Source: an uncultured Candidatus Saccharibacteria bacterium (lineage in GTDB: Bacteria > Patescibacteriota > Minisyncoccia > Phycocordibacterales > UBA918). From it: 64,000 nucleotides of DNA. The notes under the pieces were generated by a model that saw only the letters and a program-made list of their open reading frames with translations, had not been told where the DNA came from and made no database searches. The translations under genes and the position numbers were made by a program. This document shows positions 5,271-58,227 of the stretch, piece after piece. The stretch lies in NCBI GenBank assembly GCA_964493145.1, contig CAZBMV010000001.1, forward strand, positions 169,812 through 233,811. Direction: 5' to 3'. The first letter of the stretch is position 1. Every line of letters begins with the position of its first letter.

Positions 5271-6734
5271 CTAATTTGTTACGTTACTCCTTTTAATTTT
5301 ACGCATCCACACAATGGTGACGGTGAGCAGGATGATGATAGTGAGTGCTTTGAGCGGATGAGCGATGAGGAAGAGTGGCCCCGGTCCGGTAGGGAACTTC
5401 GGTAATGAAGCGAAGTCAGCCCATGCGGCGAAGCGACCGATAGCATTAAAGAGGGGCGCTTGTGCGGTCGTGATTGCAAGAAGAAATACGAGATTTGGCT
5501 TTCCAATGTCACGGAAAAGACGCCCACCAAAAACGAGAAAGATGAGGAGCCAAAAGATGCCCGCGTGTGCCCACGATGCCGGACTGAGGTGAAAATTCTC
5601 AAGTCCGCGCGGAGTGCCCTTGTTTGGAGCCGTACCCGGGTACGCGTTTGGATCGGGGTATGGGCCAACATGGTTTCCGAATTCGCCGCCGTTTGGTTGG
5701 TTGTACGAAACGGTTACATCGGAATTAGTTGTGTATTTGAGTCCAATGTATGGTCCCATCAGGATGAAGAAGAAGAGAAATCCCCAAAGAAATATGAGCG
5801 AACCCCGTACGAAGTCAAAATGCATTTCAGTGTTTTGGCGTTTCCCAAAGATACCGAAGAGTGCGAGCCATCCGAGGACGAGATACGCAAAGTAAATGAA
5901 TGCGGGGACAACCCACGCCAAGCTGTGGGTTTGAAAGAGAAGAAAAATAACAAACCCGACAGTTGTCGCCGCAAGCGAGAATTTCCCAAAATGCTCCATC
6001 AGTTTCACAAATACGTCACTCGTGCCGATAGACTTCACAACCATGATTGCCATGAGAAATCCGATGGAAAAGAACCCGATGTGTGTGTGAAATTGGACCA
6101 AACCAGCAGGCGAAACAGCTCTGTGCTGAATTGCGAACTGAATGAGTATGATGATACCGAGAAAGATGGCGAGGAGGAGGAATGTAATGTAGACACGTAT
6201 CGTATTCCACGGAACGGCGACATCGGACAAGATATCCATTCGCGAAGTATCTCCGGATGAATTCGTTGTTGTGAGGAATGGAATGGAAACACCGCTTGCG
6301 AGGAATGCGATGAGTGCGGTTGTTGCAAAAAACGAAAGTTCAAGAATGAACGCGAGGCCACCGAAGAGGGAGAGGTAGTACGTTCCGAATACTCCGAGTG
6401 AGAGGGTAAATGGGTCCACAACCATGTAGTGGATTACCATAAGTGTCACATAGAGCGGAATGGTAACAAATGAACTCCATATAACCCACTGTTTAAAGCA
6501 TCGTTTGAGGGGAAGCGCAGGTACGAGGAGCGCGTTAATGAGGATAATGAGAGACCACCACGCTGCGTGCGCGTGAAGTACCTTGAGGTATCCGGGGACA
6601 ATGTGACCGGGGACGATGTACCCCCAGACTCCCGTGAGGCCGAGTATCGGTGCCCCGAGGAGGATTGCAACGAGCGAAGCGCAGAAAAGCGGGACGCTGA
6701 GACCGAGAGTGTGCGAACGTTCTTGTGTTTCCAT
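5271..6734 (-). CDS. large polytopic membrane protein, unknown function (probable operon with 4547..5269)
   Basis: 487 aa, >10 hydrophobic helices, 1-nt spacing to downstream membrane ORF; no recognisable catalytic motifs. Confidence 0.5.
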   Translation of the reverse strand: METQERSHTLGLSVPLFCASLVAILLGAPILGLTGVWGYIVPGHIVPGYLKVLHAHAAWWSLIILINALLVPALPLKRCFKQWVIWSSFVTIPLYVTLMVIHYMVVDPFTLSLGVFGTYYLSLFGGLAFILELSFFATTALIAFLASGVSIPFLTTTNSSGDTSRMDILSDVAVPWNTIRVYITFLLLAIFLGIIILIQFAIQHRAVSPAGLVQFHTHIGFFSIGFLMAIMVVKSIGTSDVFVKLMEHFGKFSLAATTVGFVIFLLFQTHSLAWVVPAFIYFAYLVLGWLALFGIFGKRQNTEMHFDFVRGSLIFLWGFLFFFILMGPYIGLKYTTNSDVTVSYNQPNGGEFGNHVGPYPDPNAYPGTAPNKGTPRGLENFHLSPASWAHAGIFWLLIFLVFGGRLFRDIGKPNLVFLLAITTAQAPLFNAIGRFAAWADFASLPKFPTGPGPLFLIAHPLKALTIIILLTVTIVWMRKIKRSNVTN

Positions 6735-6861
6735 ACGTATAATGTGGTGCTCTTAAAATATGTAATAAACGGCTGGTAGTAGCCAACCTTGTTGCCTACA
6801 AGTGTATCATGAACCACTTGCATATTTTGGTATCTAATAGTAGAGTGTGCGGACAAATTTT

Positions 6862-7278
6862 ATGGCAACAATTAATCAGTTAACGAAAAAGGGAAGAAAG
6901 AATCCTGGATCGCGCACAAAGACGGGTGCGCTTCGTTCCGGTTTTAATTCAATTACGAACCGTCCGAATTCGTACAGTTCTCCCTTTAAGCGCGGTGTAT
7001 GTACTCGCGTAACCACGAAGACTCCTCGCAAGCCGAACTCAGCCATTCGTAAAATTGCGCGCGTTCGCCTTACCAATCACCAGGAAATTACCGCGTACAT
7101 CCCAGGTATCGGGCACTCACTTCAGGAACACTCGGTGGTTTTGGTGCGTGGCGGCCGCGTGAAGGACATCGGTGTTAACTACACCATCGTCCGCGGTAAG
7201 TACGACGCAACCGGCGTAGACAAGCGTATGCGTGGACGATCACGTTACGGCGCAAAGAAGCCGAAGGGAGGAAAATAG
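6862..7278 (+). CDS. rpsL: 30S ribosomal protein S12
   Basis: [13 protein letters not shown]...PNSAIRK...VRGGRVKD typical S12; start at conserved MATINQ (ORF track begins 15 nt earlier). Confidence 0.95.
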
Positions 7279-7521
7279 ATCTTGGAAATTTGGTTCTGAG
7301 TCACAACTCGGAACCCTGTTTCTCAGATATATAATTTGAGAGAGGACAATAGTTTATATCCGCTATAGATCATTGCATGGAACATATGCGGAGAATGAGT
7401 TTGGCGTAGCCAACACTCTCAAAACAAGCAAACGACAGGAATTCTACCTGACCTCATTTAGACGAAACGGAGGTTGGTCTAGAAATTTCTAATCCATTAT
7501 TCATTCATAAGAAATTTTACA

Positions 7522-7995
7522 ATGCGACGACCAATCAAAAGACGACCAACGGTAACAAAAGATGAACGGTATGATTCAGTGAACGTATCGCGCCTCGTTA
7601 ATTACGTCATGGTTCGTGGACAGAAGGAAACCGCACGAAAAATAGTGTACGCGGCATTTGAAGAAATTAAGAACGCGAAGGAAGGCGGGGGTGACCCGGT
7701 AGAGATTTTTGAGACAGCAATCAGGAACGCTGGCCCACAGATGGAGGTTCGTTCACGACGAGTTGGCGGTGCGAACTACCAGGTCCCACGCGAGGTACGC
7801 CCGGAACGACGTCTCGCACTCGCGCTCCGATGGATTATCACCGCGGCACGAGGTCAGAAGGGAAAGCCGATGTTCAAAGCGCTCGCAGACGAAATAATGC
7901 TCGCCGCAAAGGAACAGGGTGCGGCGGTAAAGAAGAAGGACGATACGCACAGGATGGCGGAGGCGAACCGCGCATTTGCCCACTTCGCGTGGTGA
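7522..7995 (+). CDS. rpsG: 30S ribosomal protein S7
   Basis: 157 aa, [32 protein letters not shown] typical S7. Confidence 0.95.
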
Positions 7996-47394: not shown

Positions 47395-47446
47395 GAGGCG
47401 ATAAAGACAACACAAAACCCGCGCAAGGCGGGTGTGTGTTGTTTTG

Positions 47447-47840
47447 TGGAGGTGCGGAGATTTGAACTCCGGTCCGAGAGTGGCCGTACGTACGAATCTA
47501 CAGTGCGTAGTTCTCCTTTACATTTAGACCGTGAATCGTAAAGGTGAACGAACATATTCACAGTCGAGTTTCCAAGAAATTCCGCACACTACGGAAACGA
47601 GGTAGTGTGCCACAGTCTGATGTTTATTTCACTACGACAACCGTATCAGACGTAGGGTTGTGTAGCGTCGCGCGAGCGAGCGTATAGTTACGCTACAGCT
47701 GGTGCGAATCCGAACGCGTGAGCGTAAGGACTTGGTACGCTATTCTTTGCACGTACTAGTGAATGAATTTTAAGGAAGTTCCATTCAACTTCCGCACTGC
47801 ACGTACCGTGCGGGGCAAACCGTCTAAGCCTGTCACCCCC
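47447..47840 (-). ncRNA. ssrA: tmRNA (SsrA)
   Basis: minus-strand 5' GGGGGUGACAGGCUUAGACGG.. pairs with 3' ..GCACCUCCA (G3-U wobble); tRNA-like T-arm GGAGUUCAAAUCUCC; directly adjacent to smpB; candidate tag reading frame ends ..AHAFGFAPAVA-stop. Confidence 0.7.
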
Positions 47841-54607: not shown

Positions 54608-54629
54608 TTCGTTCGTTTAAACGAACGAA
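54608..54629. repeat. 22-bp perfect palindrome TTCGTTCGTTTAAACGAACGAA upstream of the adaptor/ABC efflux operon
   Basis: self-complementary; core TTCGTTTAAACGAA identical to core of 14111..14158 palindrome (coordinates may be off by 1). Confidence 0.7.
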
Positions 54630-54642
54630 ATCAAGTGGTGTT

Positions 54643-54746
54643 TTTGTCCGTCCTCTTGGACTCGAACAAAGGACCACCGAGGTATATAAAATTAAAAAAT
54701 CCTTTGTCCGCCCGCTTGGACTTGAACCAAGGACCACCGAGGTATA
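54643..54746 (-). repeat. two tandem degenerate copies (~45-58 nt each) of the 3' half (anticodon loop to acceptor end) of the adjacent tRNA
   Basis: TATACCTCgGtGGTCCTTtGTTCGAGTCCAAGAGGACGGACAAA and TATACCTCgGtGGTCCTTGGTTCaAGTCCAAGcGGgCGGACAAA vs tRNA 3' half. Confidence 0.75.
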
Positions 54747-54762
54747 GAAATTCAAATTTTTG

Positions 54763-54836
54763 TCCGTCCTCTTGGACTCGAACCAAGGACCGCAGAGGTA
54801 TAAGCTCTGTGCTCTAACCAACTGAGCTAAGGACGG
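54763..54836 (-). tRNA. tRNA with anticodon UAU (formally Ile, AUA-reading); 74 nt, C1-G72, no encoded CCA
   Basis: cloverleaf by eye: CCGTCCT-TA-GCTC-AGTTGGTTA-GAGC-A-CAGAG-CTTATAC-CTCTG-CGGTC-CTTGG-TTCGAGT-CCAAG-AGGACGG-A. Confidence 0.55.
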
Positions 54837-54993
54837 ACAAAAATTTTAATTTATACAAGTTTCTCTCGCTCGGTTATGAAAATAAACTTTTTCATAACGC
54901 TCGCTCGTTCACTTGTAAGCCGAACACCTGCATGATTTTCTCACACAGGCGGACACAAAAACTATAGCGTAGTGTTTCTTCAAAAACAACAGG

Positions 54994-55027
54994 ATACGAG
55001 AAAAGGCCGACGCACAGCGTCGGCCTT
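54994..55027 (-). terminator. minus-strand rho-independent terminator (AAGGCCGACGcacagCGTCGGCCTT + TTTTCTCGT)
   Basis: read directly. Confidence 0.55.
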
Positions 55028-55169
55028 CCCAGATACAGGATCACCCCCTTTCGTTATCAGGTTTCTTCGCAGAGAAATATTTTTTGATCACGATGGCACC
55101 TCCTGTATGCTGGTTGAGAGGGAACTGCTACGTATCAGCGTAGTATTTCAACTCTCTGAAGTCAAGGAA

Positions 55170-55209
55170 AAAGCAATGAAAAAAGCCGACCAGTGTCATA
55201 TAGTCGGCT
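55170..55209 (-). terminator. minus-strand rho-independent terminator (AGCCGAC..GTCGGCT + TTTTTTCATT)
   Basis: read directly. Confidence 0.55.
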
Positions 55210-55227
55210 TCGTAATCTTTCGCTCGT

Positions 55228-55404
55228 TCAGGCGTGTGCCATCGCTTTTTCCCTCGCCTGAGCGTGCCGCTCGGGAAGCATAAGCCGGTGGCAGTGCCTC
55301 CTGTCGGCAAGCTCCGGCGTATTGGGAGATGGTGGCTTCTGCTGCTTTTTGTGAATGAGAAGAAAAAGAGCGAGTTGCCAAAGATCATTTCCGTGATACT
55401 CCAT
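55228..55404 (-). CDS. small hypothetical protein (58 aa) with one hydrophobic helix, strong SD
   Basis: AAGGAGG 5 nt upstream of ATG; MEYHGNDLWQLALFLLIHKKQQKPPSP.. Confidence 0.35.
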   Translation of the reverse strand: MEYHGNDLWQLALFLLIHKKQQKPPSPNTPELADRRHCHRLMLPERHAQAREKAMAHA

Positions 55405-55478
55405 GACAACCTCCTTTGAGATTGTGTCCACATGGGCACAGCTCAATAATGCTAGTGTTTTTGGTGTGTGTCAAGGTA

Positions 55479-55510
55479 AGAGAAAAGGCCGAGATGCGCG
55501 CATCTCGGCC
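55479..55510 (-). terminator. minus-strand rho-independent terminator (GGCCGAGATGcgcgCATCTCGGCC + TTTTCTCTT)
   Basis: 10-bp perfect stem read directly. Confidence 0.6.
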
Positions 55511-55770
55511 TTGGTTGATGTATGTACATGTGCCACGTGCACAGGTCTTTTGACCTGTGTCCTAGATCACCTAGGGCGGTTTTCTTATGGGCATGGCGTC
55601 TCCTTGGCGAAGAACAGATGCCGGGGTCGCCCCCCGAAACTTCCGGTGGCGACCCCGCGGCGACCGCGGCACCTCTTATCACGGTGACGACGGGGTGCGG
55701 GCGCGCTCCACCGACGGTGGCGGATGCGGGCCCGAGGTGCCAGTGTTGCGGGCTTGGCTACCGGTGCCGA

Positions 55771-55845
55771 TTAGGCGCCGATAACCTGGCCGATGTTGAT
55801 GCCGATGAAGTTGGTTTCCAGACTCTCGTCGTGAATCTTCTTCAC
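55771..55845 (-). CDS. tiny ORF (24 aa, GTG start, GGAGGG SD): MKKIHDESLETNFIGINIGQVIGA
   Basis: SD-like GGAGGG 6 nt upstream of GTG; followed by ~250-nt GC-rich region and a terminator. Confidence 0.25.
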   Translation of the reverse strand: MKKIHDESLETNFIGINIGQVIGA

Positions 55846-55974
55846 TGCAACCCTCCAAGAATGTATCCACATGGACACCCTTTCATGGTACCATATCCAA
55901 AATTTCTGTCAATAGCAAAAAATGTGTTGAAATGTATGGGTTTTAAAGCCGGCGCCCGAAGGGCGCCGGCTTCA

Positions 55975-58227
55975 CTACTCCATGTGGAGTGTCTCAGTGA
56001 GACGAAGTGCTTTTGCACGAATAGGTGCGTGGTGCGAAAGTTCGGGGTCATACTCTACGAGCGTGTGTGCCTCATCACGCGCCGCCTCTACTAATTTGAT
56101 GTTTTTGATTGCCTCCATGCCGAGGTCGGTGAGTCCCGATTGCCGAGCGCCGTAGAGTTCACCCGAACCGCGGAAGGCGAGATCGTACTCGGCGAGGTCA
56201 AAGCCACTCTTCGCGGTTGTGAGGGCGGTGAGGCGCTCTTTCGTCTTCTCACTTTTACTCTCCGTTACGACGAAGCAGTACGGCTGGTGCGTACCGCGGA
56301 TCACGCGCCCGCGGAGTTGGTGGAGCTGTGCGAGCCCGAAGCGTTCCGCACCTTCTATGATGATGTCGGTTGCATTGGGGACGTTGACGCCGACCTCAAC
56401 GACAGACGTTGCGACGAGGATGTCGGTTTCGTGTCGCGCGAAGGCGTCCATGACTTTTTCCTTTTCCGTCGGTTTCATTTTGCTATGCAAAATTGCAATG
56501 CGGTGTTTCGGGAATACGTGTTCCTTGAGGCGCTTCGCCTCGGCAATGACCGATTTCGCATTCACCGCCGTTTCTTTTTCCGGGTCGGGTTCTTCTATGC
56601 GCGGGCAAATGACGTACGCCTGTCTCCCCTCGGCAAGTTCTCGCCGTACGTGCTCGTACATGGCGTCTTCTTTTCCTTTAGTGACAATCGTCGTGATGAC
56701 CGGCTTTCGTCCCTTCGGCATTTCATCAAGGAGCGTGATGTCCAAATCACCATATATGGTGAGCGCAAGGGTGCGGGGAATGGGCGTTGCGGTCATGGAG
56801 AGGAGGTGTGGCATTCGCGCGTCCTTTTTTGCGAGCGCTTTTCGCTGGTTGGTGCCGAAGCGATGCTGTTCGTCAATAATGACGAGCGCGAGGTGCTTGA
56901 ATTCGACCGATTTGTACATGAGTGCGTGCGTGCCGATGAGGATAGGTATCTCACCATTCTTCACCCACTTTACGAGTTGCGCTTTTGATATCTTCGTTGC
57001 TTTCGTTGGATCGGTTTTTGAGGGGAACTTCATGCACCCGCTTCCCGTAATGAGACCGATTTGGATAGGGAGGTGCTTGAAGTACTGAATGAACGACTCA
57101 AAGTGTTGCTTTGCAAGGATTTCTGTAGGAGCCATGTAGGCAACCTGGAGGTTTCCAAATTCTAAATTATCCACTGAGTTGCCCGAGGAAAGACCTCGGG
57201 CAAGGTTTTGTTGTTGTGGGCGGGAGGTTGCTGTTGCGTACGCAACTGTCGCGGCGACGGCTGTCTTGCCACTTCCGACGTCTCCCTCAAGGAGTCGCGA
57301 CATGGGGCACTCACCGTTCACGTCCTTAAAGATGTTTGCGATGGCTTTTTTTTGCGCGTTCGTGAGTGGAAAAGGGAACCGTTCCGTGAATGCAGAAATG
57401 TGTGTGGGGTTGGTCTCAAATGTGTAACTTTGTGCGCCACGAATATGAGCGCGCGAAAGCGCTTGCGCCACCTGAATGTAGAAGACCTCCTCAAAGGCGA
57501 AGCGCTTTCGCGCGCTCATCGCATGATCCGCCTTCTTCGGCGTGTGAATCCACTGGAGTGCGGTGCGGAGCGTGGGGAGGTTGTACCGTTTCAACATACT
57601 CTCGGAGAGCGGATCGTCCATGCGCTCAAGGATTCCATACTCAAAACATTTCAGTATCGTGTGGTAGAACCACTTTGAGGTAATGCCCTTCGTCTCCCGA
57701 TACACGGGATAGATGGTCTCGTCGTGCGCACCGGTACCTTTGAAGATTGAATCGTGCCTATCTATGGGAAGCGTATCAAGTTTCTCCACTTCCGGATTAG
57801 CGATGTAGAGTTTTCCTTCGCTCCCCGTCACCTTGCCGACGAGCTTGACGTACATACCGTCGGTGAGCATTTTTGCGAGGTACGGTTGGTTGAACCACAT
57901 GATTTTGATGCGCGCGGAACCGTCTTCTATCCACCCTTCAGCAATAGGCACCTTACTTCGCCATGCCTTCCGCGTCTTGAGTCCCCCCAATTGACCAAAC
58001 ACGATTGCATCTTGCCCCTTTGTGAGGCCGCCGACCGACTGAATGTCACTTACGTCTTCGTAGCGCTGAGGAAGGTGATAGAGGAGGTTTTCAATGGTTA
58101 CGATGCCAAGCCGAATGAGCGCTTTTTGGTGGGTGGCATCAATGCGGAAATGTTTTGTGAGGGGATCAGAGGGGTGCACCCCATTAAACGGTCGCTTTGA
58201 ATGTTTGTAATCCCGTTCTTGTTGCAT
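55975..58227 (-). CDS. recG: ATP-dependent DNA helicase RecG
   Basis: 750 aa; wedge domain, helicase motifs (GDVGSGKT, DEQHRFG), typical RecG C-terminus. Confidence 0.9.
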   Translation of the reverse strand: MQQERDYKHSKRPFNGVHPSDPLTKHFRIDATHQKALIRLGIVTIENLLYHLPQRYEDVSDIQSVGGLTKGQDAIVFGQLGGLKTRKAWRSKVPIAEGWIEDGSARIKIMWFNQPYLAKMLTDGMYVKLVGKVTGSEGKLYIANPEVEKLDTLPIDRHDSIFKGTGAHDETIYPVYRETKGITSKWFYHTILKCFEYGILERMDDPLSESMLKRYNLPTLRTALQWIHTPKKADHAMSARKRFAFEEVFYIQVAQALSRAHIRGAQSYTFETNPTHISAFTERFPFPLTNAQKKAIANIFKDVNGECPMSRLLEGDVGSGKTAVAATVAYATATSRPQQQNLARGLSSGNSVDNLEFGNLQVAYMAPTEILAKQHFESFIQYFKHLPIQIGLITGSGCMKFPSKTDPTKATKISKAQLVKWVKNGEIPILIGTHALMYKSVEFKHLALVIIDEQHRFGTNQRKALAKKDARMPHLLSMTATPIPRTLALTIYGDLDITLLDEMPKGRKPVITTIVTKGKEDAMYEHVRRELAEGRQAYVICPRIEEPDPEKETAVNAKSVIAEAKRLKEHVFPKHRIAILHSKMKPTEKEKVMDAFARHETDILVATSVVEVGVNVPNATDIIIEGAERFGLAQLHQLRGRVIRGTHQPYCFVVTESKSEKTKERLTALTTAKSGFDLAEYDLAFRGSGELYGARQSGLTDLGMEAIKNIKLVEAARDEAHTLVEYDPELSHHAPIRAKALRLTETLHME

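Follow-up and report, generated by a model that had tools for sequence, protein, structure and literature searches.

Three probable mini-genes form a syntenic array between recG and tRNA-Ile in a relative of Candidatus Kaiserbacteria

Main finding

Bacteria of the Candidate Phyla Radiation (CPR, Patescibacteria) have densely packed genomes of ~1 Mb, and because these genomes are so small and dense, 1.1 kb without an annotated gene is conspicuous. We analysed such an interval, located between recG and the gene for tRNA-Ile(UAU) on a 64,000-nt stretch of contig CAZBMV010000001.1 (the window), and found in it conserved expression units that gene callers had overlooked. The interval is a lineage-specific syntenic array of three separate mini-genes in relatives of Candidatus Kaiserbacteria, and not a riboswitch. 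Our favoured explanation, which we hold to be fairly probable, is that units 1 and 2 code for small proteins and carry 5' and 3' elements that stabilise their RNA, and that unit 3 is a stable small RNA (sRNA) or mini-mRNA protected by an element similar to a stabilising Shine-Dalgarno sequence (STAB-SD). Each unit would possess its own near-consensus sigma-70 promoter, an RNA-stabilising 5' element, a strong Shine-Dalgarno sequence (SD) and an intrinsic terminator, and could be expressed autonomously and strongly.

The features are compiled in Table 1. A first-pass annotation by a model, made from the letters of the window, had already described three strong terminators facing the minus strand, which split the interval into short transcription units. 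All three are present, with z scores of about -5.3 to -5.5 against shuffles. It had missed that a near-consensus promoter lies upstream of every unit. Terminator-like sites (10 found in the scan versus 2.2 expected by chance) as well as promoters are commoner than chance expectation. The statement that no long open reading frame (ORF) is credible here also stands, the open frames of both strands being without a Pfam match.

Within the CPR, the window organism stands near Candidatus Kaiserbacteria/Paceibacteria. The RecG of the window is 89% identical to that of the closest relative, a metagenome contig from ENA (P0002, here locus L088), and 83% identical to that of L001, a Kaiserbacteria metagenome-assembled genome; the corresponding values are 82% for L096, 80% for L093 and 78-83% for L091, L095, L099 and L100. 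On the minus strand the order is recG (58227..55975), the 1.1-kb interval, tRNA-Ile(UAU), two extra copies of the tRNA 3' half and an operon for a HlyD-family/FtsX/ABC transporter. The order recG to tRNA-Ile is kept across the clade with an interval length of 187 nt to 2.5 kb. The starting comparison comprised 80 recG loci, in which blastn with the interval matched the tRNA only and tblastn with the small peptides gave no match. The closer relatives are contigs fetched via their RecG homologs. Reading of the recG to tRNA-Ile intervals revealed a unit layout common to 16 relatives (L001/L086, L002, L003, L015, L019, L025, L029, L036, L038, L088, L091, L093, L095, L096, L099 and L100). A metagenome scan with the unit 1 promoter pattern returned only L086, which is the same organism as L001, and six chance matches. 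Exact-protein look-up yielded no record for the window RecG or for the 58-aa product of unit 2, and the literature on CPR non-coding RNAs, CPR small proteins and 30S-sequestering sRNAs contained nothing specific that we could find.

Unit 2 encodes an orphan protein under purifying selection

The 58-aa ORF with an AAGGAGG SD that had been proposed for unit 2 is present. This ORF, p58, is a real protein gene under strong purifying selection, as derived from one informative ortholog pair. The ortholog in L096 shows 86% amino-acid and 79% nucleotide identity. Conservation of the small ORFs by dN/dS (omega, the ratio of nonsynonymous to synonymous substitution rates) had been suggested as a check, and for p58 in the window versus L096 omega is 0.034, with 26 synonymous and 10 nonsynonymous differences. 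Third codon positions account for 26 of the 37 differences, and omega exceeds 1 in both other frames. No homolog was found in Pfam, NCBIfam, PHROGs, a set of 5.8 billion proteins or 1.84 billion representatives, and gene callers left p58 uncalled in L088 and L096. We consider that unit 2 would represent a genuine orphan microprotein gene.

The single-sequence AlphaFold2 model of p58 is of low confidence and contains two helices, one of them at residues 7-17. A profile like that of a type I toxin, which the first-pass annotation had attributed to the protein, was not borne out: the hydrophobic run LWQLALFLLI comprises about 11 residues, too short for a membrane helix, and no conserved antisense promoter was found. 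One weak plus-strand promoter-like site (55176-55204, 9/12 matches) lies in the loop of the unit 2 terminator, and this loop differs in L096.

Unit 3 is a highly conserved unit with a complement of the 16S rRNA 3' tail

Unit 3, which carries a 15-nt 16S complement, had gone unnoticed before. Its predicted RNA of roughly 150 nt is the best-conserved part of the interval, conserved above recG: identity is 95.5% to L088 (recG 86.0%) and 82.6% to L096 (recG 76.4%). Among variants of the L001 type, three of the four compared pairs reach 95-99% identity and L001/L091 has 88.0%; two of these pairs show no indels over 172 nt. Unit 3 variants adjoin recG or tRNA-Ile in at least 13 loci, and the 16S-complementary motif is also located near recG or tRNA-Ile in L005, L020, L038 and L093. 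The hairpins downstream of the motif exhibit compensatory changes, in the terminator of L096 and in the L001, L003 and L093 types.

The motif has the consensus (C)GAAAGGRGGUGAUCC(AGC). In L003 it reads AAGGAGGTGATCCAGC and is complementary to the canonical 16S 3' end at every position (16/16). The 15-nt match of GAAAGGGGGUGAUCC in the window is an outlier, as the other 211 GGRGG sites there reach at most 9 nt. No start codon follows the unit 3 motif at initiation distance. In the L001, L003, L091 and L093 types the motif is placed 12-15 nt after the predicted transcription start. A putative ORF of the p16 type (16-17 codons, with its UGA in the motif) occurs only in window-type loci (L088, L096). 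Taken together, unit 3 would be a small, very conserved RNA that may include a 16-codon ORF in the sublineage of the window. The 15-nt complement most likely recruits the 30S subunit in the manner of the cry3A STAB-SD, which would confer protection from 5'-to-3' decay. If the small RNA does engage 30S subunits, this would bear on the control of translation and RNA stability in organisms with minimal regulatory repertoires; otherwise, the outcome is an annotation correction together with a clear refutation of the riboswitch call.

Two coding interpretations of the motif were rejected. An ORF that ends at the motif UGA is restricted to the window type and is not a general feature, and a frameshift site like that of RF2 is excluded by a +1 frame that runs through the terminator. 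For L001-type unit 3, a coding frame 3' of the motif was discarded because a 1-nt indel interrupts it in L003.

We regard it as rather unlikely that unit 3 is a trans-acting RNA which would pair with the anti-SD and its flank over 15-16 nt of the 16S 3' tail, and in this way sequester free 30S subunits or regulate them, or else help or survey the maturation of the 16S 3' end. Were this the case, unit 3 would represent a class of ribosome-targeting small RNAs in ultra-small CPR bacteria, beyond a self-stabilising element.

Unit 1 combines a covarying 5' hairpin, a drifting peptide sequence and a hypervariable tail

Units 1 and 2 share a 5' hairpin, another element absent from the first-pass annotation. 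In these hairpins 91% of the cells are paired, compared to 80% in shuffles (0 of 500 reach 91%) and 23-59% in slid controls. Compensatory changes were observed at five of the seven pairs, and the CAUGUG centre never varies. Since the stems covary around this invariant centre and include U-G pairs on the sense strand, we read GTGYCCATGTGGAYAC as an RNA hairpin with a recognised loop and not as a protein operator, and the candidate of an operator for a dimeric transcription factor was dropped. The invariance of the AUGU/ACGU loop suggests specific recognition. A palindrome with a CCAYRTGG core, as in the unit 1 and unit 2 hairpins, is also formed by the final codons of recG (..LHME and stop) at 55978-55989, CTCCACATGGAG; it is kept in several relatives and may be a coincidence.

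The 24-codon GTG ORF with a GGAGGG SD, ORF1, was found as described. ORFs at the homologous position exist in at least 15 relatives and encode 25-63 aa there versus 24 aa in the window, with SD and start codon kept in all loci. All indels in ORF1 between close pairs are multiples of 3, while the gap totals of the adjacent 3' region in the same kinds of pairs are 2, 21, 69 and 187 nt. The peptides share an N-terminal MKK..TESFD or MxHGPP and small-residue C-terminal tails of the type G-A-G-T-T, with a variable middle. Unit 1 would be a short peptide gene of which the translation signals and the frame are kept, whereas the sequence itself appears to drift almost neutrally. Read-through of the ORF1 stop codon was considered on account of a 61-codon open frame after the stop in the window and discarded, the frame being closed in L001.

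Unit 1-type tandem duplication is seen in L093 and in the window. In L093, a complete relative of 1.04 Mb, three tandem unit-1-like promoters are followed by unit 3 and the tRNA (6215-7760), and therefore the units duplicate in tandem. In front of each of these promoters stand the palindrome ATGTTCGACGT-N3-ACGTCGAACAT and a block rich in AT.

The GC-rich segment after ORF1, for which a riboswitch-like position had been noted, is real: the stretch that starts at 55541 is the sole 200-nt stretch of the window above 65.5% GC (mean 50.2%). It folds better than shuffles, with a z score of -4.5 without the terminator and of -6.2 for the whole of unit 1, and the GC-rich tails of nine loci (z -1.6 to -5.2) form a stack of stable hairpins in each genome. 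Neither sequence nor structure is conserved between them. Only about 105 of the 258 nt can be aligned to L088 or L096, at about 70%, where the neighbouring segments are 80-96% identical, and subfamilies share no more than the promoter and the terminator flank around their interiors. Covariation analysis of the segment had been suggested as a check; RNAalifold returned an unfavourable covariation term of +3.8 and no conserved fold. An internal SD with a mini-ORF of 1-26 codons (1-11 in nine) is present in 10 of the 11 loci inspected, L088 being the exception. We suppose that the tail is a hairpin stack of fast turnover that would serve as an exonuclease barrier in the 3' untranslated region (UTR) rather than as a ligand sensor. 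It might also give rise to a 3'-derived RNA with its start at the internal SD.

The idea that the GC-rich hairpins are repetitive extragenic palindromic (REP) sequences or miniature inverted-repeat transposable elements (MITEs) was rejected, since the window contains no further copies of them. A protein pseudogene was likewise rejected for this segment: its open frames have no Pfam match and tblastx favours no frame. A long open frame on the plus strand (55522-56094) lies antisense to the GC-rich stretch and overlaps the end of recG, again with no Pfam match. Equivalent antisense frames are annotated as genes in L088 (6136-6747, minus strand), L095 (4172-4579, minus strand) and L100 (4986-5543, minus strand). 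Such frames over hypervariable GC-rich DNA are probably spurious gene calls that hide the genuine small genes. Immediately behind the unit 1 terminator, L001, L019, L025, L029 and L036 all keep the 3' flank CCTTTCACTTTTTATATTTT despite their unrelated interiors; this flank exceeds the length needed for a plain U-tract.

Alternative explanations for unit 1

The alternative that survives best takes unit 1 for a highly expressed non-coding or dual-function RNA rich in hairpins, which might act as a sponge for an RNase or an RNA-binding protein or give rise to a 3'-derived sRNA from the internal SD; translation of ORF1 would then do nothing but stabilise or unfold the unit 1 RNA. The ratio of nonsynonymous to synonymous differences (pN/pS) of about 1 in ORF1, the widespread internal SD with its mini-ORF, the negative fold z scores and several hairpins with ACGU or AUGU loops like that of the 5' hairpin are all compatible with such an RNA. 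However, its interior lacks conserved sequence or structure, the ORF1 indels stay in frame, and the internal SD is missing from L088. We assign this explanation a low, though still appreciable, probability and prefer the peptide gene with stabilising 5' and 3' elements.

It is quite unlikely that the ORF1 peptides are diversifying secreted peptides, bacteriocin-like or involved in host interaction, and exported by the HlyD/FtsX/ABC system beyond the tRNA. The fast amino-acid change in a kept frame, the conserved ends (MKK..TESFD or MxHGPP; GAGTT) flanking a variable middle and the tandem duplicated units in L093 and the window would fit secreted peptides, as would the genomic setting: genes for a HlyD-family protein, FtsX and an ABC ATPase adjoin the tRNA in the window, adaptor and FtsX genes follow in L088, L091, L096 and L097, and an adaptor gene in L093. 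In L025, L029 and L099, however, the exporter genes are not beside the units. Moreover, ORF1 has no signal peptide or double-glycine leader, there are no maturation enzymes nearby, and pN/pS is not significantly above 1.

The riboswitch or attenuator proposed in the first-pass annotation, with the GC-rich RNA and its terminator controlling the downstream 58-aa ORF, fails every testable defining feature and is very unlikely. The order of structured RNA, terminator and SD-ATG does exist, the segment folds better than shuffles, and ORF1 resembles a leader peptide in its unconstrained sequence with kept translation signals. But a scan with Rfam 15 at gathering thresholds yielded only the tRNA in the region, and the matches in the interval at E values up to 10 were all far below gathering scores. 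The hypervariable segment has no conserved fold and differs by large indels even from the relative with 89% RecG identity, and anything from about 135 to about 780 nt separates the ORF1 stop from the terminator in the relatives. In addition, p58 has a conserved promoter of its own, TTGACA-17-CATTAT, placed after the terminator. Most relatives carry unit 1 without p58 downstream; elsewhere the GC-rich unit is followed by a tRNA, by a nitroreductase-like ORF or by another sRNA.

Several observations weigh against our explanation by small-protein genes and a protected small RNA. The promoters and transcript ends of all units are predictions from sequence. For p58, selection was measured on one good ortholog (L096), and in the closest relative L088 the ATG is lost and the frame persists in diverged form. 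ORF1 has a pN/pS of 0.5-1.3, and because its sequence is nearly unconstrained, the peptide itself may lack a function. The complementarity of unit 3 was judged against the near-universal 16S 3' end and the SDs of the local genes, and in the window type the motif is not at the predicted 5' end but about 95 nt away from it.

Table 1. Elements of the recG to tRNA-Ile interval; positions refer to the window and lie on the minus strand unless marked otherwise
Feature	Position	Strand	Remarks
recG intrinsic terminator	55945..55973	-	14-bp stem, -28.4 kcal/mol; identical in L096
Unit 1 promoter TTGACA-16-TGgTACCAT	55885..55912	-	kept in L088, L096, L001, L091, L095, L099, L100
Unit 1 5'-terminal hairpin GUGUCC-AUGU-GGAUAC	55863..55878	-	covariation across 8 homologous hairpins
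ORF1, 24 aa (MKKIHDESLETNFIGINIGQVIGA), GTG start	55771..55845	-	SD GGAGGG 55851-55856
GC-rich (64%) hypervariable hairpin stack, 258 nt, unit 1 3' UTR	55513..55770	-	from sequence, folding and alignment
Second SD and 7-codon mini-ORF MPIRKPP	55599-55605 (SD); 55571-55594 (mini-ORF)	-	inside the GC-rich stack
Unit 1 terminator	55485..55512	-	12-bp stem, -21.1 kcal/mol, U-run after
Unit 2 promoter TTGACA-17-CATTAT	55446..55474	-	directly after unit 1 terminator; -35 kept in L088, L096
Unit 2 5' hairpin GUGCCC-AUGU-GGACAC	55424..55439	-	paralogue of unit 1 hairpin
p58, orphan 58-aa protein gene, ATG start	55228..55404	-	SD AAGGAGG 55410-55416
Unit 2 terminator	55182..55211	-	11-bp stem, -16.0 kcal/mol, U-run after
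Unit 3 promoter TTGACT-17-TACGCT	55137..55165	-	read from sequence; TTGACy-17-TACGCT in L088, L001, L003, L095, L099, L100
p16, possible 16-codon ORF (MIKKYFSAKKPDNERG)	55041..55091	-	SD AGGAGG 55099-55104; UGA stop inside 16S-complementary motif
GAAAGGGGGUGAUCC, 15-nt complement of canonical 16S rRNA 3' tail	55038..55052	-	STAB-SD-like
Unit 3 terminator	55000..55030 (about)	-	14-bp stem, -24.9 kcal/mol, U-run after; two compensatory pair changes in L096
tRNA-Ile promoter TTGTTT-17-TATAGT	54961-54989	-	common to relatives
tRNA-Ile promoter and leader	54837..54989	-	leader hairpin 54873-54898; common to relatives
tRNA-Ile(UAU)	54762..54836	-	

The tRNA side of the interval

The first-pass annotation had offered, as an alternative, small-protein or sRNA genes of a decayed mobile element at a tRNA integration hotspot. 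The small-protein and sRNA genes are upheld; the decayed mobile element is contradicted by synteny, by selection and by the lack of similarity to phages or plasmids. That the interval is a remnant of such an element with decaying small ORFs is highly improbable: the two extra tRNA-Ile 3'-half copies after the tRNA, the very variable size of the recG to tRNA interval among relatives and a long reverse-strand frame between recG and unit 1 in L038 (4100-5050; a transposase or integrase by appearance only) point towards it, but the tRNA-half scars lie 3' of the tRNA and outside the interval, no integrase is present, phage and plasmid collections contain nothing similar, many relatives have the units in synteny, purifying selection acts on p58 and unit 3, and the expression signals of all units are intact.

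Two tandem 3'-half copies, both beginning in the anticodon loop, come after the tRNA-Ile(UAU) gene in the window (54640-54836, minus strand). The middle copy of the window equals the tRNA allele of L001 and L096, and the 3'-half copy of L096 equals the allele of the window. Copies of tRNA halves are also found in L096 (3530-3680), in L001 (9050-9300) and, upstream of the tRNA, in L002, L013 and L038. In several relatives a 5'-half copy with the anticodon loop CTTACAA precedes the full gene by about 80 nt, and eight loci have at least two T-arm copies. To judge from their sequences, these copies look as if site-specific recombination had taken place repeatedly at the anticodon loop. A perfect 22-nt palindrome, TTCGTTCGTTTAAACGAACGAA, at 54608-54631, after the tRNA-half copies and before the HlyD-family gene, could be a terminator or an operator. 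A standard transfer-messenger RNA (tmRNA) is encoded at 47444-47840 on the minus strand; its tag, AKNSVPSPYAHAFGFAPAVA, is the same in L086.

Comparison with known systems

Like the trp, his and thr leader attenuators and riboswitches, the array presents a short ORF, a structured RNA and a terminator in this order. Unlike in those systems, there is no conserved geometry or alternative pairing, a promoter follows the terminator, and neither a regulated downstream gene nor an Rfam match was found. Unit 2 resembles type I toxin-antitoxin modules in that a small ORF within an intergenic island has a terminator to itself, but p58 has no hydrophobic segment of transmembrane length, and no conserved signals for an antisense RNA were found. 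It is closer to bacterial microprotein genes (small ORFs) in its strong SD, its own promoter and terminator and a dN/dS of about 0.03, and differs from them in having no homolog in the databases searched and in being overlooked by gene callers in the relatives.

Stem-loops at the 5' terminus stabilise mRNAs in the ompA leader of E. coli and the aprE leader of B. subtilis. Units 1 and 2 are similar in that a hairpin is situated at the very 5' end of the predicted transcripts and stable hairpins at the 3' end; the AUGU or ACGU loop of the unit 1 and unit 2 hairpins is invariant, in difference to ompA and aprE. The cry1Aa terminator is a 3' 'retroregulator' hairpin (PMC4113751), in comparison to which the 3' stack of unit 1 is unusually long (135-780 nt) and hypervariable. 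For unit 3 the nearest parallel is the STAB-SD of cry3A, an SD-like sequence near the 5' end that binds the 30S subunit and blocks RNase J1 (PMC4113751). Unit 3 likewise has an SD-like sequence with a GAAAGGAGG core that matches the 16S 3' end by complementarity without serving initiation, and in the L001 type it lies 12-15 nt from the predicted 5' end. In contrast to cry3A, the complementarity is much longer and extends over 15-16 nt to GGUGAUCC(AGC), and the motif heads a non-coding RNA of roughly 100 nt and not a long mRNA. In the window it comes after a putative 16-codon ORF with the stop codon inside the motif. The 5' mRNA stabiliser of Bacillus thuringiensis cry3A is reportedly the subject of work by Agaisse and Lereclus in 1996 and by Mathy et al. 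in 2007, and PMC4113751 reviews it.

The elements of the array thus belong to new families of known kinds that are absent from Pfam and Rfam: a microprotein gene, an sRNA with an SD-like stabiliser, and 5' and 3' hairpin stabilisers, the two latter roles being assigned by analogy. To these kinds the interval adds an orphan microprotein under strong selection, a fast-evolving cassette of peptide and hairpins that duplicates in tandem, and a small RNA whose complementarity to the 16S 3' tail is exceptionally long.

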